Shown here: positions 6,696 through 32,608 of the stretch, piece by piece
Numbering within the stretch: position 1 is the first letter of the stretch
Layout of the letters: each line of letters begins with the position of its first letter
Source: a virus
Taxonomy: Duplodnaviria > Heunggongvirae > Uroviricota > Caudoviricetes
Direction: 5' to 3' (one strand)
DNA: 32,608 nt
Virus record (IMG/VR): IMGVR_UViG_2667527588_000004
Program-made: the position numbers and the translations under genes
Notes under the pieces: generated by a model
The model's database searches: none
The model's input: only the letters and a program-made list of their open reading frames with translations
What the model was told of the DNA's origin: nothing

Positions 6696-8654
6696 TTACG
6701 CCGTACATTTCACCAGACCGCGGTGATCAACTGGCGCGACACCGGCGTCAATACGCACTTTCGTTGTCACGCCATCCACACTGAAGCCCTCCATCTGATC
6801 AATATATGGCGTATCCACACCGTTGAGATAAGCCACTTCAATCGTATCGGAGCCTTTTGACGCAGCCAGGTAGAAGGTGGTCTGGCTGTTATCATCAAGA
6901 CGAGGCTCTGCAATAACGGTCGCAAAATCTTTCACCGGGTTAATAATACCGGCGTTAATGTCAGCCCCCTTGACACTTGAGGAGCGAATGACCTGGTTAG
7001 CAACAGACTCCATCGCCGTCGGTACCAGTACGAACGCAGGACGAATATTCAAATGACGCTCCCCCTCTTTCTGAACGCGCATCAACTGGCGGGCTTTATC
7101 CAGCGATGCCACGTCCATTGCAGCGCTCTCCAGTACGTTTGCATGTTTCGCTTTATCGAACAGACTTACATTATCTGTGGAGATTTTCGGGTTAGACGTC
7201 AGAATGGCATAAACCAGATCGGCAATAGTGGATTTCGCCGCACGGCCCAGCTTCATCGGGACATCGGTCAGCATATTCAGATCATCATTGATAATGGCCT
7301 GACGGGTGATACTGAACAGCTCGCCATAGGTCGCCAGTGCAATAGTGGCCTGTTTATCTCCGGTGGTGACGTATTTATATTCCGCCCCTTCACGCACCTG
7401 ACGCAGAGCACTGAAGCCCCCCATACCCACACGATGGGCAATTTTAAAATCAGACAACTGACCTTTCCGCGTCCACTGTTCATAGGTTTCAGGGGCATCT
7501 TCCCAGCCCTGCAGAATGGCTTTGTTCGCAACATCCAGCAGAATATTACCGAAGTCAGACGTACTGTGTGTGAACGCCGCACCGACCATCTGCATCGGGT
7601 TATAACTGGAAACCCCAATACCCCGTTCAGTCAGTGACATACGGGCATATTCACGCAGGGTCATCCCGTTGTAGACATTATCACGTTCGGTTTTTTCAAA
7701 TCCGGCACGCGCCATCAGCGCCTGGCGGATCCCGTCCCCCACAAAATTACCGTTACCGGCATAAATATGAGCCGGGGTATTTTTATTGGATGGCGTGGAC
7801 TCGCGCCCCATCTCGTTCAACAGCTTTTCGCGGGCCTGCTCCAGCGAACATTCAGGATCGGCAAGACACTGAGCCTGCAGCGTCTGATAACGCCCGCCAA
7901 ACATGGCAAACAGATCATTAATACCGTTTACACGCGCTTTTTGCTCTGCCAGTACTTGCGCACGGATGCTGTTTTCATCCACCACGGGTGCTGCTGCCTG
8001 CACTGGCGTCCGGGAGGCTTCAGGTTCATTATCCTGTACGCGTGGAGCACTGTTGCGTGGCGGAGTAATCATGTTTCGAATGGATTCCGGCATCTTTTTA
8101 AATTCCTCTGTACGTTTTGACTGAATACATGCCATTGCCTTAACGGCTGGCGTTACCTGATCAGCAAATCCATGTGCCAGACATTCGGCACCGGACATCC
8201 AGGTCTCATCCGCCAGCATGGCAGCAATTTCATCGGTGGTTTTCCCGGTTTTCTGTGCATAAGCGGGTAACAGAACCGCCTCAACTTTATCGAGCAGGTC
8301 GGCATAGGTGCGCATGTCCTCCGCATCACCGCCCGTAAAGCCAAATGGTTTATGAATCATCATGAAGGTGTTTTCCGGCATAATGACCGGGTTTCCCACC
8401 ATCGCAATGACCGACGCCATTGACGCCGCCACACCGTCGACATAAACGGTAATGGACGCACCATGTGTTTTCAGTGCATTAAAAATGGCGATGCCTTCAA
8501 AGACATCGCCACCCGGTGAATTAATATGGAGATTAATATGGGTGATATCGCCCAGTGCATTCAGATCACTGATAAACTGCTTCGCTGTAACACCCCAGAA
8601 ACCAATCTCGTCATAAATATAAATATCCGCGTCACTCTGGTGACCAGCCTGCAT
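6696..8654 (-). CDS. Prohead protease (ClpP/S14-like) - scaffold - major capsid protein fusion
   Basis: N-terminal region carries ClpP-like motifs (IYIYDEIG, INSPGGDVFEG, MMIHKP); middle is acidic and coiled-coil-like; C-terminal ~330 aa looks like an HK97-fold capsid protein; start chosen at ATG 8654, 14 nt after the portal stop. Confidence 0.75.
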   Translation of the reverse strand: MQAGHQSDADIYIYDEIGFWGVTAKQFISDLNALGDITHINLHINSPGGDVFEGIAIFNALKTHGASITVYVDGVAASMASVIAMVGNPVIMPENTFMMIHKPFGFTGGDAEDMRTYADLLDKVEAVLLPAYAQKTGKTTDEIAAMLADETWMSGAECLAHGFADQVTPAVKAMACIQSKRTEEFKKMPESIRNMITPPRNSAPRVQDNEPEASRTPVQAAAPVVDENSIRAQVLAEQKARVNGINDLFAMFGGRYQTLQAQCLADPECSLEQAREKLLNEMGRESTPSNKNTPAHIYAGNGNFVGDGIRQALMARAGFEKTERDNVYNGMTLREYARMSLTERGIGVSSYNPMQMVGAAFTHSTSDFGNILLDVANKAILQGWEDAPETYEQWTRKGQLSDFKIAHRVGMGGFSALRQVREGAEYKYVTTGDKQATIALATYGELFSITRQAIINDDLNMLTDVPMKLGRAAKSTIADLVYAILTSNPKISTDNVSLFDKAKHANVLESAAMDVASLDKARQLMRVQKEGERHLNIRPAFVLVPTAMESVANQVIRSSSVKGADINAGIINPVKDFATVIAEPRLDDNSQTTFYLAASKGSDTIEVAYLNGVDTPYIDQMEGFSVDGVTTKVRIDAGVAPVDHRGLVKCTA

Positions 8655-16453: not shown

Positions 16454-16528
<75 letters not shown>

Positions 16529-16531
16529 ATA

Positions 16532-16607
<76 letters not shown>

Positions 16608-16609
16608 AC

Positions 16610-16686
16610 TGGACCGCCACCGGGGACTCGAACCTCGCACACTCAACTTAAAGGGTTGACGCTCTTTCCTGATGAACTGGTGACGG
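16610..16686 (-). tRNA. Atypical tRNA-like gene, anticodon loop CCTTTAA (UUU, Lys-like); possibly a pseudo-tRNA
   Basis: 77-nt sequence with acceptor stem CCGTCAC/GTGGCGG (one G-U), perfect anticodon stem TCAAC/GTTGA, T-loop TTCGAGT, 3' CCA; has C at position 33 and an A-C mismatch in the T-stem. Confidence 0.45.
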
Positions 16687-16687
16687 T

Positions 16688-16763
16688 TGGTGGCCCTTGC
16701 TGGATTTGACCCAGCGACCTGTCGATTATGAGTCGCTCGCTCTCACCACTGAGCTAAAGGGCC
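16688..16763 (-). tRNA. tRNA, anticodon CAU (tRNA-Ile2 lysidine type or Met; ileZ-like)
   Basis: 76-nt sequence GGCCCTTTAGCTCAGTGGTGAGAGC...CTCATAA...GCTGGGTCAAATCCAGCAAGGGCCACCA; resembles ileX/ileZ-type tRNAs as recalled; anticodon stem and T-loop are imperfect. Confidence 0.65.
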
Positions 16764-19507: not shown

Positions 19508-19759
19508 TTATTCTTCTGAAAAAGCAGAAAAGCCAGCTTTCATTCCGATCTCTTTCAATGCCTGTAATGAAGTGACAAACTCACTGTCGCGCAAGATAAA
19601 TCCGTCCGTCACTCGGGCATTCACAAAATTAATTAACGCAGCCCCATTTTTTTGCAAACACACAATGCGGTAATGACTAACAATATTTCCATTTTCAACG
19701 CACACAGCATAGAGGCCATCTTCACAAAAAATTTTACGCAGTTCTTCGATGTTCATCAT
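19508..19759 (-). CDS. Rem-like small protein
   Basis: 83 aa ORF directly downstream of hok, matching the size and position of rem in Qin (from memory). Confidence 0.45.
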   Translation of the reverse strand: MMNIEELRKIFCEDGLYAVCVENGNIVSHYRIVCLQKNGAALINFVNARVTDGFILRDSEFVTSLQALKEIGMKAGFSAFSEE

Positions 19760-19975: not shown

Positions 19976-20131
19976 TTACTCCTCAGGTTCGTAAGCTGTG
20001 AAGACAGCGACCTCCGTCTGGCCGGTTCGGATTCGTACCTCGCAGAGGTCTTTCCTCGTTACCAGTGCCGTCACTATGACGGTTAAACAGATGACGATCA
20101 GGGCGATTAACATCGCCTTTTGCTGCTTCAT
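19976..20131 (-). CDS. hok: Hok/Gef family type I toxin (HokD/RelF-like)
   Basis: 51 aa MKQQKAMLIALIVICLTVIVTALVTRKDLCEVRIRTGQTEVAVFTAYEPEE; TM helix plus conserved RK.LCE..IR....EVA.F.AYE core; an in-frame upstream ATG at 20188 gives a 70 aa mok-like frame. Confidence 0.9.
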   Translation of the reverse strand: MKQQKAMLIALIVICLTVIVTALVTRKDLCEVRIRTGQTEVAVFTAYEPEE

Positions 20132-20342
20132 AGCCTGCTTCTCCTTGCCTTTCGGCACGTAAGAGGCTAACCTACATGTGTCTAGCATGAAATTGGCCTC
20201 AGATTAATGTTAAGCGTCTTGCAGGACGCGTAATGTTAACTGGGGCTTTTCTCTATCTGCCGTTGGTGTTCATGCCCGAGGCAGATAGCCTCAAGCACCC
20301 GCAGCCATTCTACTTAACTACCGTTACCTCGCCAATGTGAAA

Positions 20343-20432
20343 TCAGTCAGAAAGGCGATCCATAAGAACAATAGCAAGACAATAAATCGCCATTACAGCC
20401 GTAATAGCCAGCGCACATTTGAGAACCAGCAC
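20343..20432 (-). CDS. Candidate small hydrophobic peptide (29 aa), possible type I toxin-like sORF
   Basis: GTG start preceded by AGGAGG with a 5-nt spacer; translation (M)LVLKCALAITAVMAIYCLAIVLMDRLSD is one predicted TM helix with a charged C-terminus. Confidence 0.3.
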   Translation of the reverse strand: MLVLKCALAITAVMAIYCLAIVLMDRLSD

Positions 20433-20674
20433 CACAACCTCCTGTATTGGACGTACACCGGTCCTGATGAATATGAGGCTGTCTCGTCAGTGATTCAATA
20501 CAACTATTGGGTATAGTTTCTCTGATTTTTTCTGTGGAAATGGGGCTCAACCACTAGTCATTTAATACGCAAAGTCCGATACAAGCTAACCTTCTAGTCC
20601 GCTTTGAGCGAAGAGCGGACATTGCTAACAGCATCCTGTGTGAATCATTACGATCAAATCGATGACTAGATAAG

Positions 20675-20711
20675 TACAAACCGGAAAAGGGGCCTACTGA
20701 CGAAGTAGGCC
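20675..20711 (-). terminator. Terminator-like hairpin after the three-gene operon
   Basis: Minus-strand hairpin GGCCTAC-TTCGTCA-GTAGGCC followed by CCTTTTCCGGTTTG, 18 nt after the gene C stop. Confidence 0.45.
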
Positions 20712-20728
20712 TGAGTTCCTTATATATT

Positions 20729-21385
20729 TCACAAAATTCTGAGAGTTTCTAAGATGGATAAAAGTGTTGGAAGCTGACTCTCTCTCACACGGAATCTACC
20801 CGTCCTAGATAATTCCGTTTCAATTCCGTTAACGAAGAAATGTACGGAATCAAAAACGGCCGAACTATTCATGTATTTATTCTGATAAATTTCTTGGAGA
20901 TTCTTTGAGCTTACTATTTTTGTCTTTGCTAAAGTAAAAGGATCAACAGAGATATTAGATAGAGACATGGATTTTATCTTGATGTCAAAGCCCTCAGAAA
21001 GACCATTTACAATTTTTCTCAGATCAAATTCTACTGGTCTCAAGCCACTATCTTCACCAAATAGTTTTTGCACCATAGTATAAGGCACTTTCATACTTAA
21101 TGGAGGATTAGTGGCATATAGTATGATTTTTTTCCCTTGTCTGACGCCAAAGTCCACATTTAAGTAAGTTGCTATTTCAACCTCTGAACGCTCGCCATTA
21201 GCATATTCTAAGCTTTGCTTGCTAATGCTTCTCATGGTAAATCTTAGTTTAAGCACTTCAGAGTTATTAATGATTTGAAAACCATATCCTTTATCTTCAT
21301 CATAGAGGTTGTCATTTACTTTATGTAATAACTCACTTTTAGTTATATCCTTTTCTGCTTTATAAATTTTTACCTTTATCATCAT
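20729..21385 (-). CDS. Hypothetical protein C of the AT-rich three-gene operon (218 aa), unknown function
   Basis: ATGATG start at 21385 overlaps the gene B stop as ATGA; AGGAGG 4 nt upstream; AT-rich codon usage unlike the flanking phage genes; no motif recognised. Confidence 0.8.
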   Translation of the reverse strand: MMIKVKIYKAEKDITKSELLHKVNDNLYDEDKGYGFQIINNSEVLKLRFTMRSISKQSLEYANGERSEVEIATYLNVDFGVRQGKKIILYATNPPLSMKVPYTMVQKLFGEDSGLRPVEFDLRKIVNGLSEGFDIKIKSMSLSNISVDPFTLAKTKIVSSKNLQEIYQNKYMNSSAVFDSVHFFVNGIETELSRTGRFRVRESQLPTLLSILETLRIL

Positions 21386-22629
21386 CCAGCCTCCTGATTC
21401 AAAGTCTCGCAAGACATAGCTTTCGTTACTGGGTATCGCTTGGTATGCTCTTCGATAATAAAGTCATTAATCAAAAATATTTTATCTTCTAATTGTTTCA
21501 TGACTTGATCAAAGTCTGCGTCACTGAGTTTTTCTCTCTCTGCGGATGCAGAGTTGCTTTCTTTGTATAACGCTCTGAATTTTATATTTTTCCCAAGATA
21601 TTTATCATCGAAACTAAGTTCAAAAGTTATAGTATGATTCTTAACTACTGAGGAAAATGACTTCCATCGAATTAAGCTTCGATAAAACCCATCACTGCAC
21701 AGTTCCTTAATTTGAGGTGCGTTCACTAATGATAGGCCATCATACGCGGCATTGTTAATGTTAAAAGTTAGGTTTTCATCATCGTCAGATGCCATTTCCT
21801 GATTATTAATGTCATCATCATTTTCGTTATCTGTAGAAGGTGAAATCTTGTTTAATAACTCTTGTGTTTCTTCATTATTATTTCCTTCGAGATTATCTCC
21901 ATTAATATCCAGAGATGTTTTTATTCTGCTTACTCTAACCTTTTCAAGACCAGCATATTCGAGTCCTGTTTTTTTATAATTTCCATCAAAATCATAAAGA
22001 TGAACAGCAAAAATATTCCTAAGATCTGTATCGACGATACTTGATAAATCTATTTCGTTGACAACTATGTTGTTACAAACTGTTGATGAATATGTATCAA
22101 TTATTTGCTTGAGAATTTCTGAAATGCGTGGCGTATAGTTATATCTTACTGAAACATATCCTTTTTTTACTATAAAAACTATACTCCCACTGTACAATTT
22201 TTTCTGCTGAAACTTACCCCTTCTAAAATCAAACTCAGTATAATCAATAGATATATGATAGGTTTGCAAGCCTGAGTAATGATCAATTTTCTCATGCCCT
22301 AGCAACTTGGGTCTATTTTCTTTCACTTTGTTTACAACGTCATAGAGTTTCTCTATATCAAATTCTTCATATATACGTTTTACTGAGAAGACGTCTTGGC
22401 TGGGTTTGGTTGCCAGTTTATCTTGTACTTCTCTGATGTGATTATATGAAAATGGCAGGTCTGATAATTTTTCTATCAATACCTCTTTTGATAAGTTAGA
22501 TGGGAAAATTATCCCTCTATTGAAGGCGATTTTCCTTAATGTAACATCTGTGATTTTTGCACTGTTAGAGTGGAGGGCGGTATAAATGTCACTTTCGTTT
22601 GAAAACAACGTAGCTTGATATTTATTCAT
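21382..22629 (-). CDS. Hypothetical protein B of the AT-rich three-gene operon (415 aa), unknown function
   Basis: ATG at 22629 with AAGGAG spanning the gene A stop; contains an Asn/Asp/Glu-rich low-complexity linker (NNNEETQELL...DNENDDDINNQEMASDDDEN); no Walker A or other motif recognised. Confidence 0.8.
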   Translation of the reverse strand: MNKYQATLFSNESDIYTALHSNSAKITDVTLRKIAFNRGIIFPSNLSKEVLIEKLSDLPFSYNHIREVQDKLATKPSQDVFSVKRIYEEFDIEKLYDVVNKVKENRPKLLGHEKIDHYSGLQTYHISIDYTEFDFRRGKFQQKKLYSGSIVFIVKKGYVSVRYNYTPRISEILKQIIDTYSSTVCNNIVVNEIDLSSIVDTDLRNIFAVHLYDFDGNYKKTGLEYAGLEKVRVSRIKTSLDINGDNLEGNNNEETQELLNKISPSTDNENDDDINNQEMASDDDENLTFNINNAAYDGLSLVNAPQIKELCSDGFYRSLIRWKSFSSVVKNHTITFELSFDDKYLGKNIKFRALYKESNSASAEREKLSDADFDQVMKQLEDKIFLINDFIIEEHTKRYPVTKAMSCETLNQEAG

Positions 22630-22639
22630 GTCATACTCC

Positions 22640-23731
22640 TTATGAAAAGTGACATTTTCTATTCACCTGCTTGCTGGCAACCTGGTACTCAAATATAGAT
22701 AGCTTTTGATTAACAAAAGGAATGGATACTATTTTTTCCTTTAACGTTTCTATATGAGATTGAGTGAAAGAATATATTCCTATGTAATCATTAATGGCGG
22801 ATTGCAAATGAATGCTTGAGTGTGATGAGAACGGAGTTATAACAAATATTTTGTCAAATTGATTGAGTAATTGATAGTTAAATATATACTCTAAAAGAAA
22901 TATAAAGTGGTTACTGGAATCAACCTCTTCCTTCCAGAATATATTCAATATTTTATTTCTTATTCTATCGCCACCATCATTTCTAATATATTCGTGTTCA
23001 TATGAGTAAAAAATCATCCCAGATGTTATCATTTCAATTGTGGCTGGAAGAATTTTCCCTTTCGTTGCTATTTTATTATGTTTGTCAGGGTAAAAATATG
23101 TACAGTTCTCTATCTCAGGAATTTTTTGCCATAACATATTTGTTTCTTGTGTTACTTTGTCAGTAATTCCTCTTCTAGTCTCGATGTGTTCTGTAACATC
23201 TAGTAAAAATCTGATCATAGTTGGGTCAAAAACGGCAATCACAGAGTTCTCTGGAAAATCATAACTTGCTGTGGCTGCTCCATTTAATTTCTCAATTAAA
23301 TCAGAGTCATATTTATTGTCATGATTATATATAAAAAGTAGGCCGTTAACTTGATATTTCTCATTTGTGCTGTCAACAAATAGACGCCGCCACTCAGGAC
23401 TTCTTGGCGCGCAAGCTACCTGTTGTGATAAACTTCGTACAGTGTTCAATATTGATTTTGTACCGTCAAGCGTGCTGGCACAATAAGATTTTAAATCTGT
23501 TTGTATATACTGAGTTATATCTGAATAAGGATCTTTATATTTGAAGACTACATCCGTAGGATGAGTTTTTTTTGGGTTTTCAGATAAAAGTTGTTTAGCG
23601 TTTAGATGAGATCTCAAACAACAGTCCCAACTTATATCCGTTGTATTTTGGGTTTTCCAGCCTAACTCATCAAAAATTCTACTGGAAATGATACCTGCAA
23701 TCTCATCAATATTCTTAGTTTCGCCGCCCAC
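22640..23731 (-). CDS. Hypothetical protein A of the AT-rich three-gene operon (363 aa), unknown function
   Basis: GTG start at 23731 with GGAGG 4 nt upstream; first gene of a translationally coupled A-B-C operon; no recognisable catalytic motif. Confidence 0.8.
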   Translation of the reverse strand: MGGETKNIDEIAGIISSRIFDELGWKTQNTTDISWDCCLRSHLNAKQLLSENPKKTHPTDVVFKYKDPYSDITQYIQTDLKSYCASTLDGTKSILNTVRSLSQQVACAPRSPEWRRLFVDSTNEKYQVNGLLFIYNHDNKYDSDLIEKLNGAATASYDFPENSVIAVFDPTMIRFLLDVTEHIETRRGITDKVTQETNMLWQKIPEIENCTYFYPDKHNKIATKGKILPATIEMITSGMIFYSYEHEYIRNDGGDRIRNKILNIFWKEEVDSSNHFIFLLEYIFNYQLLNQFDKIFVITPFSSHSSIHLQSAINDYIGIYSFTQSHIETLKEKIVSIPFVNQKLSIFEYQVASKQVNRKCHFS

Positions 23732-24050
23732 ACTTCCTCCATAGTTCGTTGTTTTATCTAGTGAAGATCTGATTCATGGTTTTCCAAGCCCATGCGCAAA
23801 ACAATTAATCAAGTAAGAATAATCTTAATCAATTTAATCTTTTTTATTTGAATCATCAAGAGCCCCATTACTGATAGGCATCAGTTGGTGGTATCTCTGC
23901 TCAAGCTTCAGTAAAATCTGGTTTGCTACTTCCGCTCCTGGCACAAAGCGGACAACCACGCCAGATCTACCCTGTGCCATGAAAAATGAGAATGTCAATT
24001 CACTCCTGAACTAATGCTTTTTAATCTAGTAACGTCTAAAATACCTAACA

Positions 24051-24452
24051 TTATCCCTGATAAAATGCCAGTATGCGCTGCATAACTTCACTCATCCGGC
24101 ACTCGCGACAGATTATGTTTAGGCGACTGTCGTAGCGACGTATTTCTCCATCAGGTAACGACCAGATAAGGTCCGGATCAACCACAGCTGTTTTCTTCAC
24201 CTTTGCCCTCGATAGTTTTTTGCGGGCGTTTTGCCAGTCCTTACGCGCCTGTTCAGACGGGAATAACCCGTAGCCGGAGTTGTATACATCGCCACTGGCT
24301 ACCAGCTCTCTGGCAAGAACGCTCATCAGATATCTAGTCGCACCTGTTTTAGCTTCCAGTTGCCGTAACGTCTCACGACCGCTCTGGCGCACGAGTTCCA
24401 CCACCTGCCCTTTAATTTTTTCCCGCTCTTCTTGTGTAAAAACTTTTGCCAC
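24051..24452 (-). CDS. Hypothetical phage protein
   Basis: 133 aa ORF downstream of the replication gene with typical phage-like GC content; basic; function unknown. Confidence 0.5.
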   Translation of the reverse strand: MAKVFTQEEREKIKGQVVELVRQSGRETLRQLEAKTGATRYLMSVLARELVASGDVYNSGYGLFPSEQARKDWQNARKKLSRAKVKKTAVVDPDLIWSLPDGEIRRYDSRLNIICRECRMSEVMQRILAFYQG

Positions 24453-24492
24453 AAGTCCCCCTTAAAATTACCTCATGACCTGAAATCAAAAC

Positions 24493-25458
24493 TTATCCTC
24501 TGAAACCAGGCGGAATTTCTGTATCCGGTTCAGAAATATGATTCACACAACGCTGTACAGGTGAACGTCCCAGGCGGATGACCAGTTCGTCCCATTTTTC
24601 GCGGAGTTTTGACGGGCTCATGATGTTTTTTACCCAGAATGGATCCCGCTGTACCCGACCAAACATTTCGCAAATTTGTCTGTGGCTTCTGCCATCCAGC
24701 ATCCGCATTGTGCGCACGTCATTGGCCCAGGCTGTCCAGTTAGGCTCTTTTGGTCGCATGATCTCTCCATCGTCGCTGGCAGCCTGTTCGTAAAGGTTCA
24801 CGATCCGCCCCCAAATCCACTGCGCACACGCCAAATCCTCCCTGCTACCCCACTGGCGTTTTTTCACACTAAACACAACCGCGTCGGGGTTCCGGGTTAA
24901 AAAATCCTGTTCAGTCGTCTGCGGGTCCGGTTGCGAAGCTTCCGGACGAAAAGTGTTTTTATTCTCTGTAGTAATCTCTGTTGTATTCTCTGTAAGATCA
25001 TCAGGCCATTTTGACCCGATGACATTGGGTCGTTTTGAACCAATGGAGCGTTTCATTTTGACCTCTTCCATCGTGTCATTTTGACCTGATGGAGCGGCGC
25101 ATTTTGAACCGATGGATTCGTTCAATTTGCCACCATCTAAAAGCTCGCTCCCATAGTTGATCGTGTAGAAATTGGTCATATCGCGCTTTGATTTATTGAG
25201 CTTTTCACAACGCAAAAGCCCCAGCGTTTTCAGACTTGCAAACGCGCGTTTTAACGTTGACTCTGACCAGAATGGGAACTGTTCCAGCCATTGTTCCGTT
25301 GTGTTATAAATCCAGCGAACACCATCACATTCCATACCGGAGTTGGTATCTCTCAACCAGTAGTGCAGTTGTTGCAAAACAATGGCTTCGTTTAAGCCGA
25401 TTTTCATTGCCAGCTGCGTGTTTATAACCAGTGGGCGTTCAGCAAAAAGAAGACTCAT
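24493..25458 (-). CDS. Replication initiation protein (lambda O-like replisome organiser) with the origin embedded in the gene
   Basis: Start chosen at ATG 25458 (MSLLFAERPLV); N-terminal DNA-binding-like region, then a segment encoded by 5-6 direct DNA repeats (iterons, 25017-25147) giving repeated SIGSK peptide units. Confidence 0.7.
   Translation of the reverse strand: MSLLFAERPLVINTQLAMKIGLNEAIVLQQLHYWLRDTNSGMECDGVRWIYNTTEQWLEQFPFWSESTLKRAFASLKTLGLLRCEKLNKSKRDMTNFYTINYGSELLDGGKLNESIGSKCAAPSGQNDTMEEVKMKRSIGSKRPNVIGSKWPDDLTENTTEITTENKNTFRPEASQPDPQTTEQDFLTRNPDAVVFSVKKRQWGSREDLACAQWIWGRIVNLYEQAASDDGEIMRPKEPNWTAWANDVRTMRMLDGRSHRQICEMFGRVQRDPFWVKNIMSPSKLREKWDELVIRLGRSPVQRCVNHISEPDTEIPPGFRG
25017..25147. 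repeat. Iteron array, putative origin of replication inside the O-like gene
   Basis: Direct repeats of about 23 bp: CATTTTGACCCGATG..., GTTTTGAACCAATGGAGCG, CATTTTGACCTCTTCC..., CATTTTGACCTGATGGAGCG, CATTTTGAACCGATGGATTCG, TTCAATTTGCC. Confidence 0.7.
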
Positions 25459-25960
25459 AATTCCATCCAGCTTTTTGTTGGTATTGCTGTCGATACGCAA
25501 GCTTGAAAGCAATTGCTTTTTCTATAAGTTCGTCAGTTTCACGATCTACAACGGCAGGATCTGCAAAAAGCAGTCCAGATTCCACCACATCGCCATATTC
25601 TTTATTTAACCCGGCGATCATGTACGTAATACTTTTTCCATCACTGATCTCACGATACAACCTGAAATCACTAATCCGGATAGCCTCCATAATTGCAGGC
25701 ACTAGCGCTGTGAACTTTTCACGCTTATCCCTGGTGTCGATAGCCTTCCAGCGTTCGAATATCTTCACTCGATTAACGCTAAGCGCTCGCTGATCAACCG
25801 CGCCACCTTCATATGTGACACGCTGAACATCGATGTTCGGGCGCTCTTTCAAAGCCCAGAATGCTTCAGTGATTAATATCGTCGCCTGCTCCTGTGTCAT
25901 TCCTGGTCGACATATCCAGGCATCCAGAGCCTCACGAGCTTGTTCAGGAGTGATTTTCAT
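25439..25960 (-). CDS. Putative early regulatory protein (CII-like or YdaT-like), uncertain
   Basis: 173 aa ORF between the cro-like dicC and the replication gene; assignment is positional only. Confidence 0.4.
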   Translation of the reverse strand: MKITPEQAREALDAWICRPGMTQEQATILITEAFWALKERPNIDVQRVTYEGGAVDQRALSVNRVKIFERWKAIDTRDKREKFTALVPAIMEAIRISDFRLYREISDGKSITYMIAGLNKEYGDVVESGLLFADPAVVDRETDELIEKAIAFKLAYRQQYQQKAGWNYESSFC

Positions 25961-26171
25961 TGTTCAACCGCCCCGTCCGCTTCGTCTTACGATATTCGTC
26001 ATAAACTTTGGGATCATACTGAAGCTCCCCGCCAGATGCCTCCTGTAGACGCATCGCGCGACCTTCAGGAACCAGTATCCCCCAAGCAGCAACACTTGCC
26101 AGTCTCACTCCTGCGGCATTGGCAAGCTTTGTTTTGCTGCCAAAAAAAGTAATTGCGTCAACTTTAAGCAT
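25944..26171 (-). CDS. dicC: DicC-like Cro-type regulator
   Basis: About 75 aa transcribed divergently from the repressor gene; GAGGGGG 6 nt upstream of ATG 26171; ...LVPEGRAMRLQEASGGELQYDPKVY... matches DicC as recalled. Confidence 0.7.
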   Translation of the reverse strand: MLKVDAITFFGSKTKLANAAGVRLASVAAWGILVPEGRAMRLQEASGGELQYDPKVYDEYRKTKRTGRLNNENHS

Positions 26172-26184
26172 CAAAGCCCCCTCT

Positions 26185-26202
26185 TGTTAGACTTTTCTAA
26201 CA
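26185..26202. promoter_or_regulatory. Palindromic operator in the dicC-dicA intergenic region
   Basis: TGTTAGA-CTTT-TCTAACA perfect inverted repeat, just upstream of the dicC ribosome binding site. Confidence 0.55.
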
Positions 26203-26251
26203 TTATTGTGCGCGGGATACCTAAGTCAAGAAAAATTAGAATTACCTAACT

Positions 26252-26659
26252 ATGGATACAAGAACCCTAGGCCAGCGAGTTCTGGCGCGACGAAAAGAAT
26301 TACGCTTAACACAACGAGAAGCTGCGCGCCTCGCTGGAGTTGCTCACGTCACAATTTCACAATGGGAAAGAGACGAAACCCAGCCAGTCGGAAAACGATT
26401 GTTTGCTTTAGCGGATGCTCTGAAGTGCTCACCTACATGGCTAATGTTTGGTGATGAAGACAAGGCACCAGTGCCTGCACAAGAACTTCATGTGGAAACA
26501 GAGCTAACTCCCAACCACAAAGAATTGATCGAATTATTCGATGCTCTTCCATCTTCCGAGCAGGAAGCCTTGCTGTCTGAAATGCGCGCAAGAGTAGAAA
26601 ACTTCAACAAACTCTTCGAAGAAATGCTTAAAGCGCGTAAAAATAAATCAATAAAATAA
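26252..26659 (+). CDS. dicA: DicA-like HTH (XRE family) repressor
   Basis: 135 aa; HTH segment LTQREAARLAGVAHVTISQWERDETQP and C-terminal SPTWLMFGDEDK...RARVENFNKLFEEMLKAR closely parallel E. coli DicA as recalled. Confidence 0.85.
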   Translation: MDTRTLGQRVLARRKELRLTQREAARLAGVAHVTISQWERDETQPVGKRLFALADALKCSPTWLMFGDEDKAPVPAQELHVETELTPNHKELIELFDALPSSEQEALLSEMRARVENFNKLFEEMLKARKNKSIK

Positions 26660-26694
26660 CATTCTTTTCAAGTGATTAGTTGCGCCCACTCTTT

Positions 26695-26714
26695 TTGTTA
26701 GACCAACCTAACAA
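26695..26714. promoter_or_regulatory. Second palindromic operator upstream of the ydfA-dicB operon
   Basis: TTGTTAG-ACCAAC-CTAACAA inverted repeat sharing the TTGTTAG half-site with the 26185 palindrome; a further TGTTAGG half-site lies at ~26731. Confidence 0.5.
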
Positions 26715-26827
26715 AAAACACTTGCCTCTCATGTTAGGTTATTCTAAATTACTTTCCATCAAGACACCGCACGGTGTTCTCAGCAAACAGTTCCGCTACC
26801 CCGGCGTTAAGGGGAAATGAGGTCAGC

Positions 26828-26980
26828 ATGGATACTATCGATCTTGGCAACAGCGAATCTCTGGTATGTGGCGTGTTCCCCAACCAGGACGGTACGTTCA
26901 CCGCGATGACATATACCAAAAGCAAAACGTTTAAAACCGAATCTGGCGCGCGTTGCTGGTTAGCCAGAAACACTGACTGA
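26828..26980 (+). CDS. ydfA: YdfA-like small protein (DUF1391)
   Basis: 50 aa from ATG 26828 (GAGG upstream): MDTIDLGNSESLVCGVFPNQDGTFTAMTYTKSKTFKTESGARCWLARNTD, matching Qin YdfA as recalled. Confidence 0.7.
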   Translation: MDTIDLGNSESLVCGVFPNQDGTFTAMTYTKSKTFKTESGARCWLARNTD

Positions 26981-26991
26981 TGAGGCTGACG

Positions 26992-27357
26992 ATGGAATTT
27001 AAAGATTTACCGTCTGATGTACAGAAAACAGCAGCTCATACATTGCATTCTGTGCTGCGAGAAATCGGGAAAGATATTGCAAGCGAGCCAGCAAAAGATC
27101 TGGCCCGGAAAATCAAGACCGCTTTCGTTGAGCTTTATAATGTTGGCACTGACTCTGAAACTGTCGAGACCAAGACCGTAAGTTCACCAATATTCTCACT
27201 TGAGCCAGGCGTATTATCAGGTGAAATATGCGCCGAGATTTCCAGCGAACTGCTTCCGGTAATACGAGAAGCAATTTGCCGTCGCGGTTTGGATGGAAGT
27301 TACGATCATGACGTCCTGCAAGTTCTCAGGACAATGGTAACTTCACTGGGGATTTGA
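26992..27357 (+). CDS. Hypothetical protein in the dicB operon
   Basis: About 121 aa from ATG 26992 with GAGG 5 nt upstream; occupies the ydfB/ydfC position of Qin but is larger; no motif recognised. Confidence 0.5.
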   Translation: MEFKDLPSDVQKTAAHTLHSVLREIGKDIASEPAKDLARKIKTAFVELYNVGTDSETVETKTVSSPIFSLEPGVLSGEICAEISSELLPVIREAICRRGLDGSYDHDVLQVLRTMVTSLGI

Positions 27358-27526
27358 TCCCTGCGTCCTCTAACCTTTTGATATAGCGGTCCTCCAAGAA
27401 GCGGTAAATTTTGTCGAAATCATCTTTCCCCTCTGGTTTATTCAGAGGATTACAGGACCCGTAAGTAGCGGCATACATTTCAACCGTTTTATCAAAAATA
27501 TAAGAGACAAATTCTTCTTTAGTCAT
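27326..27526 (-). CDS. Small hypothetical protein (66 aa) antisense to the dicB operon
   Basis: ATG 27526 with AAGGA 8 nt upstream; MTKEEFVSYIFDKTVEMYAATYGSCNPLNKPEGKDDFDKIYRFLEDRYIKRLEDAGIKS...; region is locally AT-richer. Confidence 0.4.
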   Translation of the reverse strand: MTKEEFVSYIFDKTVEMYAATYGSCNPLNKPEGKDDFDKIYRFLEDRYIKRLEDAGIKSPVKLPLS

Positions 27527-27801
27527 ATAGATTTCCTTCTTGGTTATTCGGGATAAGAAGGATACCACCTCGCCTGACGTGGTTAAAAGCAGGCACACAA
27601 CACGAAAGCGCACGGCGAAGTTCGTCTCACTGTACGGTGTCGTTAAATTTAATTCGACCGTGCGCTTCCGGTTGTGGCAACCCGCGAAATGGCGCGGCGG
27701 TAAGTATGGCGGGGTTATTCCTTCCCCGTTGAGGACACCGAGTTGTCAGGTTGACCATACGCTTAAGTGACAACCCCGCTGCAACGCCCTCTGTTATCAA
27801 T

Positions 27802-27855
27802 TTTCTGGTGACGTTTGGCGGTATCAGTTTTACTCCGTGACTGCTCTGCCGCCGT
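27802..27855 (+). ncRNA. dicF: DicF small regulatory RNA
   Basis: TTTCTGGTGACGTTTGGCGGTATCAGTTTTACTCCGTGACTGCTCUGCCGCC followed by TTTTT matches the ~53-nt DicF RNA as I recall it; lies just upstream of dicB as in Qin. Confidence 0.75.
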
Positions 27856-28028
27856 TTTTAAAGTGAATTTTGTGATGCGGTGAATGCGGCTAAGCGCACG
27901 CGGAACAGTTAAAACCAAAAACAGTGTTATGGGTGGATTCTCTGTATCCGGCGTTAATTGTTAACTGGTTAACGTCACCTGGAGGCACCAGGCACTGCAT
28001 CACAAAATTCATTGTTGAGGACGCGATA

Positions 28029-28217
28029 ATGAAAACGTTATTACCAAACGTTAATACGTCTGAAGGTTGTTTTGAAATTGGTGTCACTATCAGTAACCCT
28101 GTATTTACTGAAGATGCCATTAACAAGAGAAAACAAGAACGGGAGCTATTAAATAAAATATGCATTGTTTCAATGCTGGCTCGTTTACGTCTGATGCCAA
28201 AAGGATGTGCACAATGA
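28029..28217 (+). CDS. dicB: Cell division inhibitor DicB
   Basis: 62 aa from ATG 28029 (GAGGA upstream): MKTLLPNVNTSEGCFEIGVTISNPVFTEDAINKRKQERELLNKICIVSMLARLRLMPKGCAQ, matching DicB as recalled. Confidence 0.85.
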   Translation: MKTLLPNVNTSEGCFEIGVTISNPVFTEDAINKRKQERELLNKICIVSMLARLRLMPKGCAQ

Positions 28218-28405
28218 ATTCAGCATTTGCGCTTGTTCTGACAGTTTTTCTTGTTTCCGGAGAGCCAGTTGATATTGCAGTCAGTGTTCACAGGACAATG
28301 CAGGAGTGTATGACTGCAGCAACCGAACAGAAAATTCCCGGTAACTGTTACCCGGTCGATAAAGTTATTCACCAGAATAATATCGAAATCCCGGCAGGTC
28401 TTTAA
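28214..28405 (+). CDS. ydfD: YdfD-like small membrane protein
   Basis: 63 aa from ATG 28214, overlapping the dicB stop (ATGA); MNSAFALVLTVFLVSGEPVDIAVSV... N-terminal TM segment; matches Qin YdfD in size and position. Confidence 0.7.
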   Translation: MNSAFALVLTVFLVSGEPVDIAVSVHRTMQECMTAATEQKIPGNCYPVDKVIHQNNIEIPAGL

Positions 28406-28497
28406 AACAGTTCCGTAATAAATATCCGGTTTCATTCTTATATGCCAGCAATGGCAGGGATTTGTTCATCCTTAAATCTGTCATGAGGTAAAAAAAA

Positions 28498-30969
28498 ATG
28501 AGTAAAGTCTTTATTTGCGCCGCTATTCCTGACGAACTGGCAACAAGGGAAGAAGGCGCGGTGGCTGTAGCCACAGCCATTGAAGCTGGCGACGAACGCC
28601 GTGCTCGAGCAAAATTTCACTGGCAGTTCCTGGAACATTATCCGGCTGCTCAGGACTGCGCTTATAAATTTATTATCTGCGAGGATAAACCTGGCATACC
28701 CCGCCCTGCCCTCGATTCATGGGATGCTGAATATATGCAGGAAAACCGCTGGGATGAGGAGTCTGCTTCTTTTGTCCCCGTTGAGACTGAATCCGATCCG
28801 ATGAACGTCACTTTTGACAAGCTGGCCCCTGAAGTACAGAACGCTGTCATGGTTAAGTTCGACACATGTGAAAACATCACCGTTGATATGGTTATTAGCG
28901 CACAGGAATTGTTGCAGGAAGACATGGCAACATTCGACGGACATATCGTTGAAGCGTTGATGAAAATGCCAGAAGTTAACGCCATGTATCCGGAGCTTAA
29001 GTTGCACGCCATTGGGTGGGTTAAGCATAAATGTATTCCTGGTGCTAAATGGCCCGAAATTCAGGCAGAGATGCGCATCTGGAAAAAACGTCGCGAAGGT
29101 GAACGCAAGGAAACCGGAAAATACACGTCTGTTGTTGATCTCGCCCGCGCCAGAGCCAATCAACAGTACACTGAAAATTCAACAGGAAAAATCAGCCCGG
29201 TCATTGCTGCCATTCATCGCGAATACAAGCAGACATGGAAAACACTGGATGACGAACTGGCCTACGCTCTCTGGCCTGGTGATGTGGATGCCGGAAACAT
29301 TGACGGCAGCATCCATCGCTGGGCAAAAAAAGAAGTTATCGACAACGACCGCGAAGACTGGAAGCGTATCTCGGCATCAATGCGCAAACAGCCTGATGCC
29401 CTTCGCTACGACCGCCAAACTATTTTTGGCCTTGTCCGTGAGCGTCCGATCGACATTCACAAAGATCCCGTAGCACTGAACAAATATATCTGCGAATACC
29501 TGACGACAAAGGGCGTGTTTGAGAATGAAGAAACAGACCTGGGCACTGTTGATGTTCTCCAGTCATCAGAAACACAAACTGATGCAGTGGAAACTGAGGT
29601 ATCTGATATCCCAAAAAATGAAACCGCACCGGAAGCTGAACCATCTGTAGAGCGTGAGGGGCCGTTCTATTTCCTCTTCGCAGATAAGGACGGAGAAAAA
29701 TACGGTCGCGCAAACAAACTTTCTGGTCTGGATAAGGCACTGGCTGCTGGCGCCACTGAAATCACAAAAGAAGAATATTTTGCCCGAAAAAATGGCACAT
29801 ACACGGGCTTACCGCAAAATGTAGATACCGCTGAAGATTCAGAACAACCAGAGCCGATAAAAGTTACCGCTGACGAAGTAAACAAAATTATGCAGGCAGC
29901 CAATATCAGCCAGCCTGACGCCGATAAGTTGCTTGCTGCATCACGTGGTGAATTTGTTGAAGGGATTAGTGACCCGAATGATCCGAAATGGGTTAAGGGG
30001 ATCCAGACCCGCGATTCTGTGAACCAGAACCAGCATGAATCGGAACGGAACTACCAAAAAGCGGAACAAAACAGCCCAAATGCGTTACAAAACGAGCCAG
30101 AAACGAAACAGCCTGAACCAGTGGCGCAACAGGAAGTGGAAAAAGTCTGCACCGCCTGCGGTCAGACCGGCGGCGGCAACTGCCCTGATTGTGGCGCGGT
30201 GATGGGCGACGCAACATACCAAGAAACATTCGATGAAGAGTATCAGGTTGAAGTTCAGGAAGATGATCCGGAGGAAATGGAAGGCGCTGAACATCCACAC
30301 AAGGAGAACACTGGCGGCAATCAGCATCACAATAGCGATAATGAAACTGGCGAGACGGCAGATCACTCAATTAAGGTGAACGGTCATCACGAAATCACAT
30401 CCACCAGCAGGACGTGTGACCATCTAATGATCGACCTTGAAACCATGGGAAAAAATCCTGATGCCCCGATCATCTCAATAGGTGCAATATTTTTCGATCC
30501 GCAAACCGGAGATATGGGACCGGAATTTAGTAAGACTATCGATCTGGAAACTGCTGGCGGAGTCATTGATCGGGACACCATTAAATGGTGGCTTAAGCAA
30601 TCACGCGAAGCGCAATCTGCCATTATGACCGATGAAATCCCGTTAGATGATGCACTGTTACAATTGCGGGAATTTATCGACGAAAACTCCGGTGAATTTT
30701 TTGTTCAGGTTTGGGGAAATGGAGCCAACTTCGACAACACGATTTTGCGCCGTTCATACGAACGGCAGGGGATCCCCTGCCCGTGGCGTTACTACAACGA
30801 TCGCGATGTACGCACAATCGTTGAGCTGGGGAAAGCCATAGACTTCGATGCCAGAACGGCTATTCCATTCGAAGGTGAGCGCCATAATGCACTTGATGAC
30901 GCCCGTTACCAGGCAAAATACGTTTCAGTTATCTGGCAAAAACTGATCCCGAGTCAGGCTGATTCTTAA
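28498..30969 (+). CDS. Large YdfE-like protein with central zinc ribbon and C-terminal DEDD-type 3'-5' exonuclease domain
   Basis: 823 aa; GAGG upstream of ATG; central CTACGQTGGGNCPDCG; C-terminal ~190 aa carries DnaQ-like motifs (MIDLETMG, WGNGANFDNTIL, ERHNALDDARYQ); occupies the ydfE position after dicB-ydfD. Confidence 0.7.
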   Translation: MSKVFICAAIPDELATREEGAVAVATAIEAGDERRARAKFHWQFLEHYPAAQDCAYKFIICEDKPGIPRPALDSWDAEYMQENRWDEESASFVPVETESDPMNVTFDKLAPEVQNAVMVKFDTCENITVDMVISAQELLQEDMATFDGHIVEALMKMPEVNAMYPELKLHAIGWVKHKCIPGAKWPEIQAEMRIWKKRREGERKETGKYTSVVDLARARANQQYTENSTGKISPVIAAIHREYKQTWKTLDDELAYALWPGDVDAGNIDGSIHRWAKKEVIDNDREDWKRISASMRKQPDALRYDRQTIFGLVRERPIDIHKDPVALNKYICEYLTTKGVFENEETDLGTVDVLQSSETQTDAVETEVSDIPKNETAPEAEPSVEREGPFYFLFADKDGEKYGRANKLSGLDKALAAGATEITKEEYFARKNGTYTGLPQNVDTAEDSEQPEPIKVTADEVNKIMQAANISQPDADKLLAASRGEFVEGISDPNDPKWVKGIQTRDSVNQNQHESERNYQKAEQNSPNALQNEPETKQPEPVAQQEVEKVCTACGQTGGGNCPDCGAVMGDATYQETFDEEYQVEVQEDDPEEMEGAEHPHKENTGGNQHHNSDNETGETADHSIKVNGHHEITSTSRTCDHLMIDLETMGKNPDAPIISIGAIFFDPQTGDMGPEFSKTIDLETAGGVIDRDTIKWWLKQSREAQSAIMTDEIPLDDALLQLREFIDENSGEFFVQVWGNGANFDNTILRRSYERQGIPCPWRYYNDRDVRTIVELGKAIDFDARTAIPFEGERHNALDDARYQAKYVSVIWQKLIPSQADS

Positions 30970-31041
30970 TGTTCAACTGTCGCCGGTTGTGACTGGTATT
31001 TTGCAACCGGCGCTCGTCTGATGTAAGAGATAAAGAAATCG

Positions 31042-31293
31042 ATGAGCGAAGTAATCATGATTGTCTCTCCCGGCAAATGGGTATCCGAAGAGCAGTTAAT
31101 TGCGCTGAAAGGAATAAAAAAAGGTACGTTAAAAAAGGCCCGGGAAAAATCGTTTATGGAAGGAAGGGAATATAAGCATGTCGCTCATGACGGTATGCCA
31201 TGGGATAACAGTCCATGCTTTTACAACCTAGAAGAAATTGATCGCTGGATTGAGCGCCAGGCATCAGCGAGACCAAGACGTCATCTTACTTGA
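31042..31293 (+). CDS. Excisionase-like / small DNA-binding protein
   Basis: 83 aa ORF immediately upstream of the integrase; basic; assignment is positional. Confidence 0.5.
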   Translation: MSEVIMIVSPGKWVSEEQLIALKGIKKGTLKKAREKSFMEGREYKHVAHDGMPWDNSPCFYNLEEIDRWIERQASARPRRHLT

Positions 31294-31312
31294 CTAAAAG
31301 CCACACTAACTA

Positions 31313-32608
31313 ATGAGAGAAGTTGAAATGAAATATCCGACAGGCGTGGAAAACCATGGAGGGAAATTACGTATCTGGTTTGTTTATAAAGGCGTAAGAG
31401 TCAGGGAAAATCTGGGGGTTCCTGACACAGCAAAAAACAGGCGCGTTGCAGGTGAACTACGCGCCTCTGTTTGTTACGCAATAAAAACTGGTGTTTTCGA
31501 CTATGCAAAACAGTTTCCCTCCTCACGCAATCTGGAAAAATTTGGTGAGGCCCGACAAGATTTAACCATAAAAGAACTGGCTGAAAAATTTCTGGCACTG
31601 AAAGAAACTGAAGTCGCCAAAACATCACTCAACACATACCGTGCCGTCATCAAAAATATCCTGAGCATAATCGGTGAAAAAAATCTTGCCTCATCGATTA
31701 ATAAAGAAAAATTACTGGAGGTTCGTAAAGAGCTACTGACTGGATACCAGATCCCCAAAAGTAACTATATTGTTACACAACCAGGGAGATCGGCTGTAAC
31801 TGTAAATAATTACATGACAAATCTTAACGCCGTGTTCCAGTTTGGTGTTGATAACGGTTACCTGGCAGATAATCCGTTTAAGGGGATCTCGCCATTAAAG
31901 GAATCAAGAACCATTCCGGATCCTCTTTCGCGGGAGGAATTTATCCGTCTTATCGATGCGTGCAGAAATCAGCAAGCAAAAAATTTATGGTGTGTTTCTG
32001 TTTATACTGGCGTTCGCCCTGGTGAGCTGTGTGCACTTGGATGGGAGGACATAGATCTGAAAAATGGAACAATGATGATCAGGAGAAATTTAGCAAAAGA
32101 CCGTTTCACGGTACCAAAAACACAGGCGGGAACCAATCGGGTCATTCATCTTATTAAGCCAGCAATCGACGCTCTCCGGAGTCAGATGACATTAACGAGA
32201 CTGAGCAAAGAGCATATCATTGATGTTCACCTCAGAGAGTATGGCAGAACAGAAAAACAAAAATGCACCTTTGTTTTTCAACCTGAAGTGTCAGCGAGAG
32301 TAAAAAATTATGGTGACCATTTTACCGTTGACTCAATAAGGCAGATGTGGGACGCAGCGATAAAACGTGCCGGACTCCGCCATCGAAAATCATATCAGTC
32401 GAGACATACTTATGCCTGCTGGTCGCTGACAGCTGGTGCTAACCCGGCATTTATAGCAAACCAGATGGGCCATGCAGATGCGCAAATGGTATTTCAGGTA
32501 TACGGAAAATGGATGTCTGAAAACAATAATGCACAGGTAGCTTTGTTAAATACACAGTTAAGCGAGTTTGCCCCAACCATGCCCCATAACGAAGCAATGA
32601 AAAATTAA
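31313..32608 (+). CDS. int: Tyrosine-type site-specific integrase
   Basis: 431 aa; C-terminal catalytic region with conserved R...HxxR...Y elements (RHRKSYQSRHTYACW, MGHADAQMVFQVYGKW); alternative start at ATG 31328; stop codon is the last 3 nt of the window. Confidence 0.9.
   Translation: MREVEMKYPTGVENHGGKLRIWFVYKGVRVRENLGVPDTAKNRRVAGELRASVCYAIKTGVFDYAKQFPSSRNLEKFGEARQDLTIKELAEKFLALKETEVAKTSLNTYRAVIKNILSIIGEKNLASSINKEKLLEVRKELLTGYQIPKSNYIVTQPGRSAVTVNNYMTNLNAVFQFGVDNGYLADNPFKGISPLKESRTIPDPLSREEFIRLIDACRNQQAKNLWCVSVYTGVRPGELCALGWEDIDLKNGTMMIRRNLAKDRFTVPKTQAGTNRVIHLIKPAIDALRSQMTLTRLSKEHIIDVHLREYGRTEKQKCTFVFQPEVSARVKNYGDHFTVDSIRQMWDAAIKRAGLRHRKSYQSRHTYACWSLTAGANPAFIANQMGHADAQMVFQVYGKWMSENNNAQVALLNTQLSEFAPTMPHNEAMKN

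Follow-up and report, generated by a model that had tools for sequence, protein, structure and literature searches.

The Qin-type dicAC/dicBF module of virus record IMGVR_UViG_2667527588_000004, a common variant with a two-gene cassette in the ydfB/ydfC position

Genes and DicF RNA of the module

Positions 25944-28405 of IMG/VR virus record IMGVR_UViG_2667527588_000004 (32,608 nt, the whole of which is referred to as the window) carry a divergent dicC/dicA pair, ydfA, two further small genes, the small RNA gene dicF, dicB and ydfD. In all likelihood, the segment belongs to an Escherichia coli lambdoid prophage of the Qin/mEp460 type, inserted beside rspB, and makes up its immunity switch and its early-left (pL-type) operon. 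A Qin-type module with dicC/dicA, ydfA, DicF, dicB and ydfD had been proposed in the original prediction; all these elements were recovered, none of them more than 3 nt from its predicted position. The Qin-type dicAC/dicBF system and its variable flanks are already known and described in the literature. The present module is a common natural variant of it, with two small genes in place of ydfB/ydfC, and occurs also in BL21(DE3). The identity of the parts, the layout of the operators, their conservation and co-variation, and the mosaic structure are established here by sequence comparison.

Gene dicC (25944-26171, minus strand) encodes a Cro-like protein of 75 amino acids (aa), matched by NCBIfam NF007282 (164 bits, cut-off 130) and by Pfam PF14549 P22_Cro (5e-12, 45.8 bits against 30.2) and 83-84% identical in amino acid sequence to DicC of K-12. 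The gene was predicted correctly, but its end was placed at 26174, on an upstream TTG; the start in K-12 and in the annotation of the Prokaryotic Genome Annotation Pipeline (PGAP) is the ATG at 26171. Gene dicA (26252-26659, plus strand) is divergent from dicC, with an 80-bp spacer between them, and encodes a 135-aa HTH_3 repressor (NCBIfam NF007257, 224.7 bits, cut-off 101, residues 1-134). PF01381 (1.5e-14) is the sole Pfam domain matched; no Peptidase_S24 domain was found in DicA by the Pfam scan. The N-terminus of DicA is 45% identical to that of P22 C2.

The first gene of the dicBF operon is ydfA (26828-26980, plus strand; 50 aa, DUF1391, PF07151 4e-27), the product of which is 84% identical to that of K-12. 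Gene dicB (28029-28217, plus strand) encodes 62 aa, matched by PF05358 over positions 1-62 of 62 (1.9e-40, 136.8 bits) and identical in 62 of 62 residues to K-12 DicB, the MinC-dependent division inhibitor. Its stop codon overlaps the start of ydfD (ATGA). Gene ydfD (28214-28405, plus strand) encodes a 63-aa DUF1482 lysis protein (PF07358 5e-26), identical to that of K-12 in 61 of 63 residues (97%). The distal operon gene (28498-30969, plus strand) encodes an 823-aa protein whose long N-terminal part is acidic and of low complexity and whose C-terminus contains an Rv2179c-like 3'-5' exoribonuclease domain (PF16473, 2e-67). It is the intact form of ydfE, a pseudogene in K-12, where it is disrupted by IS2.

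The dicF small RNA (27802-27854, plus strand) is 53 nt long and ends in a terminator hairpin with a U-run. It is a full-length hit to the covariance model Rfam RF00039 (27803-27854; all 52 model positions; 72.5 bits, gathering score 48; E = 2.5e-14) and is identical to K-12 DicF at 52 of 53 nt. The sole change, C to G at 27854, is in the unpaired last base after the stem; the U-run is kept. A long hairpin upstream (27603-27670, plus strand; arms CGAAAGCGCACGGCGAA and TTCGACCGTGCGCTTCCG) corresponds to the RNase III processing site of K-12, is near-identical to it, and is present in both the minimum free energy and the centroid folds. The precursor region 27654-27854 is likewise near-identical to K-12, and the sequence from the hairpin through ydfD is 97% identical. 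In K-12, DicF is released from the polycistronic dicBp transcript: cleavage by RNase III at +813/814 gives a 190-nt species and cleavage by RNase E the 53-nt RNA, and no promoter inside the operon was detected ahead of dicF or dicB (PMC10448788). If a 190-nt species ended here at about 27855, its 5' end would fall at about 27666, within the 3' arm of the hairpin.

Two other prophage loci, L004 (3640-3967) and L007 (4569-4900), have counterparts of the two small genes and of short boxes in the dicF-dicB spacer (window 27876-27902 and about 27978-27995) and are without the approximately 190 bp that contain DicF (window about 27684-27875). L007 keeps the upstream hairpin, with a compensatory change of ACGG/CCGT to ACTCC/GGAGT. 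DicF may tentatively be regarded as a discrete insertion-deletion module in a more widely conserved leader of the pL operon; the matches are short.

The module is a mosaic against Qin of K-12. DNA identity is 96-100% in 25823-26072; 42-76% in 26073-26760, which comprises the N-terminal half of dicC, both control regions and dicA; and 86-98% in 26761-26960. Positions 26972-27584 have no counterpart in K-12 Qin. Alignment of the operon to Qin resumes with 96.8% identity over 27585-28519, and 27585-29264 is 98% identical to K-12, as far as the IS2 insertion. The exchanged segment ends just upstream of the hairpin at 27603-27670, so the processing signals of DicF are intact. All the sequence-testable defining features of DicF, DicA, DicC, DicB, YdfD and YdfA are present. 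Among the K-12 Qin features that can be tested by sequence, only the ydfB/ydfC content is lacking.

Operators, promoters and the immunity switch

Two palindromes with the half-site TTGTTAG had been predicted, and TTGTTAG-N6-CTAACA occurs exactly at 26184-26202 and 26695-26713. Allowing at most one mismatch, this motif has four hits, each palindrome being read on both strands; 0.03 would be expected in the window, and 0 of 100 shuffles reached four. The core TTAG-N6-CTAA has five matches in the 32.6-kb window (0.20 expected), four of them within 26184-26750; the fifth, at 21198, lies inside an unrelated gene and is taken as chance. Two of the four sites, 26233-26252 and 26731-26750, had been missed in the original prediction.

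The control region of dicC and dicA contains the first two sites. The operator at 26184-26203 (TTGTTAG ACTTTT CTAACAT) is the equivalent of Oc of K-12. It abuts the -10 element of the predicted dicC promoter and covers the predicted start site. This promoter, the pR analogue (26202-26229, minus strand; -35 TTGACT at 26229-26224, 16-nt spacer, -10 AATAAT at 26207-26202), is a prediction with 10 of 12 consensus matches in the scan; the K-12 arrangement reads the same. The operator-like site at 26233-26252 (AAATTAG AATTAC CTAACTA) overlaps the ribosome-binding region and start codon of dicA, and its position is conserved in K-12 (L002, 7916-7935) and in the related immunity region L008 (2656-2675).

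The other two sites lie at dicBp, the putative pL analogue (26722-26750, plus strand; -35 TTGCCT at 26722-26727, 17-nt spacer, -10 TAAATT at 26745-26750), which was placed by alignment with the K-12 dicBp region TTGACC-17-TAATCT. A K-12 dicBp start about 7 nt after the -10 element agrees with the published position of RNase III cleavage (+813/814) and with the DicF species of 190 nt (PMC10448788). The operator at 26695-26714 (TTGTTAG ACCAAC CTAACAA), 8 bp upstream of the -35 element, is a perfect palindrome, whereas its K-12 counterpart is degenerate (ATGTTAG CTATAG CATACAA). The operator-like site at 26731-26750 (ATGTTAG GTTATT CTAAATT) covers the spacer and -10 element and is conserved in K-12 (8412-8431) and L008 (3192-3211). 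The layout is that of a lambdoid switch: two sites at dicCp/dicA and two at dicBp, overlapping predicted -35, -10 or start positions.

The half-site common to both control regions is that of Oc, TTGTTAGTCATAACTAACAA, the experimentally defined DicA operator of K-12. In K-12, binding of DicA to Oc TTGTTAGTCATAACTAACAA occurs in vivo and is abolished by a single A-to-C change within CTAA (PMC3441716), and DicA represses dicBp 22-fold (PMC10448788). The DicA proteins of K-12, the window and L008 are 55-66% identical to one another, have recognition helices of the form (A/S)HV(T/S)(I/V)SQWER, and keep TTAG-N6-CTAA cores at equivalent positions among diverged spacers. Phage mEp460_ev081 has SGSSISLWES as its recognition helix, and its palindromes at these positions read TTGAG-N4-CTCAA. 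Operators and recognition helix thus co-vary across four immunity variants, which supports the operator assignment and suggests a single operator class for the window prophage and K-12 Qin. The earlier proposal that one repressor controls both promoters through shared half-sites is supported by these conserved and co-varying candidate operators. Natural co-variation also backs the definition of the DicA operator itself: TTAG-N6-CTAA is kept across repressors of 55-66% identity, and the palindromes are replaced together with the helix in mEp460_ev081. DicA-type immunity regions comprise at least four specificity variants of one architecture (L008, 2598-3287; L009, 3160-3836).

It is improbable that DicA of the window is heteroimmune to DicA of K-12, reads other bases or sites, and resembles it in its palindromes only superficially. 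The two repressors are only 55% identical in amino acid sequence and differ in helix 2 of the helix-turn-helix motif, and L008 has the recognition helix of the window together with a dicC-proximal operator of different outer bases (TCCTTAG...CTAAGGA), which may mean that the outer bases are recognised by residues outside helix 3. However, the recognition helix itself is conservatively substituted (AHVTISQWER; SHVSVSQWER in K-12), the 7-bp TTGTTAG is identical in both and stands at the same positions relative to the promoters, and the truly different helix of mEp460_ev081 is paired with truly different palindromes. With one half-site for DicA proteins of 55% identity, co-resident dicBF loci (median 2 per genome) may cross-regulate.

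A gene for the antirepressor Rem lies outside the segment (rem, 19508-19759, minus strand; 'protein Rem' in PGAP). Rem relieves DicA repression in K-12 (PMC10448788), and by analogy rem would belong to the control circuit of the switch. DicA is without an S24 autoprotease, so that induction is expected through Rem and not through RecA-stimulated cleavage (PMC10448788). Rem is 90% identical in amino acid sequence to Rem of K-12, and its presumed target DicA only 55%. The best-conserved stretches of DicA, CSPTW..FGDEDK and the C-terminal EMRARV.NFNKLFEE.LKAR, may be the site of action of Rem. C4 antisense RNA (RF01695) is found in related prophages outside E. coli (L004, 6625-6813; L005, 759-846), in L004 together with isrK (RF01394); these RNAs lie near antirepressor genes of the Phage_ASH/Rha type. 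Theirs is a P1/P7-like arrangement of antirepressor control, different from Rem.

The switch is proposed to work as follows; binding, repression, RNA processing and the activities of DicF, DicB, YdfD and Rem are carried over from K-12 experiments. DicA, a short, non-cleavable helix-turn-helix repressor, would bind as a dimer to 20-bp inverted repeats with the core TTAG-N6-CTAA. At 26184-26203 it would turn off the dicC promoter, and with it Cro-like DicC and the rightward early genes. At 26695-26714 and 26731-26750 it would occlude dicBp and keep ydfA, the 121-aa cassette gene, dicF, dicB, ydfD, the exonuclease gene, xis and int silent. Removal of DicA, most likely by the prophage's own Rem, would allow dicBp to fire. 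RNase III, acting at the 27603-27670 hairpin, and RNase E would process the polycistronic RNA to the 53-nt DicF. DicF would then block ftsZ and other mRNAs, DicB would recruit MinC and so block FtsZ rings, and YdfD would promote lysis. DicC would thereafter keep dicA off, giving a bistable switch. Mutual repression and bistability of repressor and Cro are reported for K-12 and O157:H7 (PMC10448788).

Several points weigh against this reading. Operator binding and expression are carried over from K-12 by analogy, and at 55% identity the affinity of DicA and its sensitivity to Rem could differ. Yun et al. found that DicA of K-12 bound in vivo to Oc only and not to the predicted Om and Oa, each tested alone (PMC3441716); it may be, therefore, that the weaker sites (26233-26252 and 26731-26750) are filled only cooperatively or are targets of DicC instead. 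Three operators per control region are given in the literature, and a third was not found at up to one core mismatch; two clear sites are present in each. The convergent gene within the operon could lower read-through from dicBp to dicF and dicB and has no precedent in K-12. The proteins of the cassette gave no match to any Pfam, NCBIfam or PADLOC model, known anti-phage defence and toxin-antitoxin families included.

The 121-aa/66-aa cassette

An open reading frame (ORF) of about 121 aa in the place of ydfB/ydfC and a convergent ORF of 66 aa had been predicted. Both are annotated by PGAP in genomes identical here, within the part of the module that has no K-12 Qin match at the DNA level. The cassette is about 0.6 kb long, with boundaries at 26992 and at about 27601-27613. 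The 121-aa ORF (26992-27357, plus strand) occupies the ydfB/ydfC slot and matches phrog_33007 (5e-82). The 66-aa ORF (27326-27526, minus strand) matches phrog_34441 (2e-49), has the ribosome-binding site AAGGA 7 nt before its ATG, and overlaps the 121-aa ORF at its 3' end by 32 nt. Both ORFs have good ribosome-binding sites; both PHROGs are of unknown function.

Residues 1-55 of the 121-aa protein also match four other PHROGs. Alignment of its family shows conservation of about 50 N-terminal aa, which form a helical hairpin, and C-termini that are interchangeable; the slot gene of L008 has only the N-terminus in common with it, at 32% identity. The AlphaFold2 model of the 121-aa protein is of low confidence (predicted local distance difference test, pLDDT, 57), with residues 53-85 predicted as disordered. 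That of the 66-aa protein is a two-helix hairpin (pLDDT 73), for which Foldseek gave best E values of 1.6 against PDB and 0.68 against BFVD. A PDB profile hit of the cassette proteins to the archaeal histone HMfB (28 residues, E = 0.055) was rejected as insignificant, and the 121-aa protein was rejected as an N-like antiterminator on composition, having no arginine-rich N-terminus. Exhaustive HMMER searching gave 14 relatives of the 66-aa protein among 1.84 billion representatives; 3 of the 14 are long and repetitive (1,315-1,402 aa, matched in multiple stretches) and are regarded as compositional noise. A literature search by the BL21 protein accessions and locus tags of the cassette returned nothing.

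The ratio of nonsynonymous to synonymous substitution (dN/dS) is 0.38-0.53 for the 121-aa ORF and 0.10-0.27 for the 66-aa ORF (dS up to about 2), which indicates that both are under purifying selection. About 400 of the 5,426 complete E. coli genomes have the cassette, at an identity of at least 99%; ydfBC of the K-12 type is present in 2,280 and the immunity core of the window in 566. Diverged copies of the cassette proteins (74-88% aa identity) occur in Enterobacter, Salmonella, Hafnia and Cedecea. In L004 and L007 the pair lies directly downstream of an S24-type CI repressor gene. In Cedecea (L005, L006) the 66-aa gene stands alone between cro and cII, opposed to early lytic transcription. 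DicF was not found in any of the cassette loci L004-L007, and a constant association of cassette and DicF was rejected on L004 and L007. The replacement is a discrete mobile cassette, which occurs also next to S24-type CI repressors in Enterobacter and other prophages without DicF.

A putative promoter of the 66-aa gene was read at 27559-27586 (minus strand; -35 TTAACC at 27586-27581, 16-nt spacer, extended -10 TGgTATCCT at 27567-27559). The block is conserved in L004, L007 and L009. It is a prediction read from the sequence, and it was missed by the consensus promoter scan.

The orientation against pL-type transcription and the mobility fit a moron, and the 66-aa gene is most likely such a prophage-expressed gene. 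A fuller version is considered unlikely. According to it, the cassette is a self-contained mobile moron in which the 66-aa gene, expressed from its own promoter in the lysogen, confers a new host phenotype or acts as a convergent-transcription brake, with the 121-aa gene as early-lytic partner. As a moron it might provide, for instance, exclusion of other phages or counter-defence against them; as a brake it would raise the threshold for accidental expression of DicF and DicB from a leaky dicBp. In either case the dicBF operon would have strain-specific, swappable control or cargo modules, and an effect on DicF/DicB output would have been overlooked because all the experimental work considered here was done in K-12 or O157:H7. 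A selected convergent two-gene cassette in this slot might modulate DicF and DicB, and BL21(DE3) would be an easy system in which to study it.

A stronger effect, in which dicF and dicB escape DicA control through transcription collision or antisense RNA from the convergent 66-aa gene, is likewise improbable. In that case dicBp would have little influence on DicF and DicB, or their expression would need a further promoter 3' of the cassette. The gene is real, selected and oriented against dicBp, overlaps the 121-aa ORF, has the plausible conserved extended -10 promoter, and opposes early lytic transcription always in other prophages. Nevertheless, no intrinsic terminator is predicted on the plus strand from ydfA to dicF, and work in K-12 detected no internal promoter ahead of dicF or dicB (PMC10448788). 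The RNase III hairpin for the long dicBp transcript is intact directly 3' of the cassette, and the same arrangement is found in the functional phage mEp460_ev081, in which pL-type read-through to xis/int is presumably needed; these two facts argue against strong decoupling.

That one or both ORFs are chance or decaying reading frames in a recombination spacer is very improbable: the absence of family annotation of any kind, the low-confidence and partly disordered 121-aa model, the only moderate constraint on the 121-aa ORF and the retention in Cedecea of only the 66-aa gene with about 90 nt downstream would agree with it, but both ORFs remain open at 75-88% aa identity in other genera, belong to PHROG families and have good ribosome-binding sites, the 66-aa ORF has a dN/dS of 0.10 at dS of about 1.4-2.1, and 397 of 400 carrier genomes keep the cassette at 99% conservation or more.

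Prophage setting and comparison with known systems

A 2,551-bp stretch of the locus has matches of 100% identity in two complete E. coli chromosomes. At a coverage of at least 80% it occurs in 187 of the 5,426 complete genomes; BL21(DE3) and its relatives are among these (99.6%). PGAP annotation of the matching genomes gives the same genes as were read in 25944-28405. Parts of the operon, dicF among them, occur in several prophage contexts with neighbours that are not conserved (PMC5069750). The dicAC-dicBF system has been under study since the 1980s, and the discovery value of the locus is small.

The insertion site adjoins rspB, which flanks the integrase gene, as in K-12 Qin; the integrase end (31449-32608, the last 1.16 kb of the window) is 99.6% identical to K-12 Qin (intQ). 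The rightward early genes comprise a cII-like ydaT gene, an O-like replication gene, a DUF977 gene, hokD/sok, rem, rusA and a Q-type antiterminator gene, followed by three tRNA genes, lysis genes and the terminase through tail genes. Leftward are the intact 823-aa exonuclease gene, xis and int. With terminase-to-tail, lysis, Q, rem, replication and xis/int genes present, the 'cell-division module' is here the immunity region and pL-type operon of its prophage. Judged by its gene content, the host prophage is apparently a complete lambdoid phage and not a stranded remnant as is Qin of K-12.

Between the DUF977 gene and hokD/sok, where K-12 Qin has relBE-ydfV-flxA, there are three adjacent unannotated genes (20729-23731, minus strand; 363, 415 and 218 aa). 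No Pfam domains are found in their products, which match, in order, the PADLOC candidate-defence models PDLC03004 Hp1 (5e-41), PDLC03005 Hp2 (1e-10) and PDLC03006 Hp3 (4e-11). From the order of these matches and from their place, the genes are probably a three-gene anti-phage defence cargo. The sok antitoxin RNA (RF01794, 115 bits) lies beside hokD at 20126-20300 (minus strand). The three tRNA genes (16457-16763, minus strand), Ile, Thr and Gly by the annotation of an identical genome, are downstream of the Q-type antiterminator gene.

Among known systems, Qin of K-12 (b1569-b1577; cryptic, also named Kim) has the same order of dicC, dicA, ydfA, dicF, dicB, ydfD, ydfE and xis/int, the TTGTTAG half-site at the same promoter positions, the same RNase III hairpin, and rem and hokD/sok. 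It differs in having ydfB/ydfC where the convergent 121-aa/66-aa cassette stands here, and in its operator distal to dicBp, which is degenerate there and a perfect palindrome in the window. K-12 Qin is a remnant, whereas the window prophage has intact ydfE and int and full sets of replication, lysis and morphogenesis genes.

The C2/Cro switch of P22 immC and the CI/Cro-pL/pR switch of lambda likewise have a divergent repressor and cro with operators overlapping pR-like and pL-like promoters, and DicC belongs to the P22_Cro family. Unlike their repressors, DicA has 135 aa and no S24 autoprotease domain; no N-type antiterminator was recognised in the dicBF operon of the window, in contrast to the lambda and P22 switches. 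A pL-type operon carrying an inhibitor of host division is analogous to that of lambda with kil.

The functional phage mEp460_ev081 (LR597641.1), which carries dicAC, dicF, dicB and rem (PMC10448788), covers 69% of window positions 20000-32608 at 96.6% identity. Its immunity specificity is different, its DicA being 50% identical to that of the window. Its early-left operon contains ydfA, the cassette, dicF, dicB, ydfD, the exonuclease gene, xis and int, with cassette proteins of 99% (121-aa) and 98.5% (66-aa) aa identity to those of the window.

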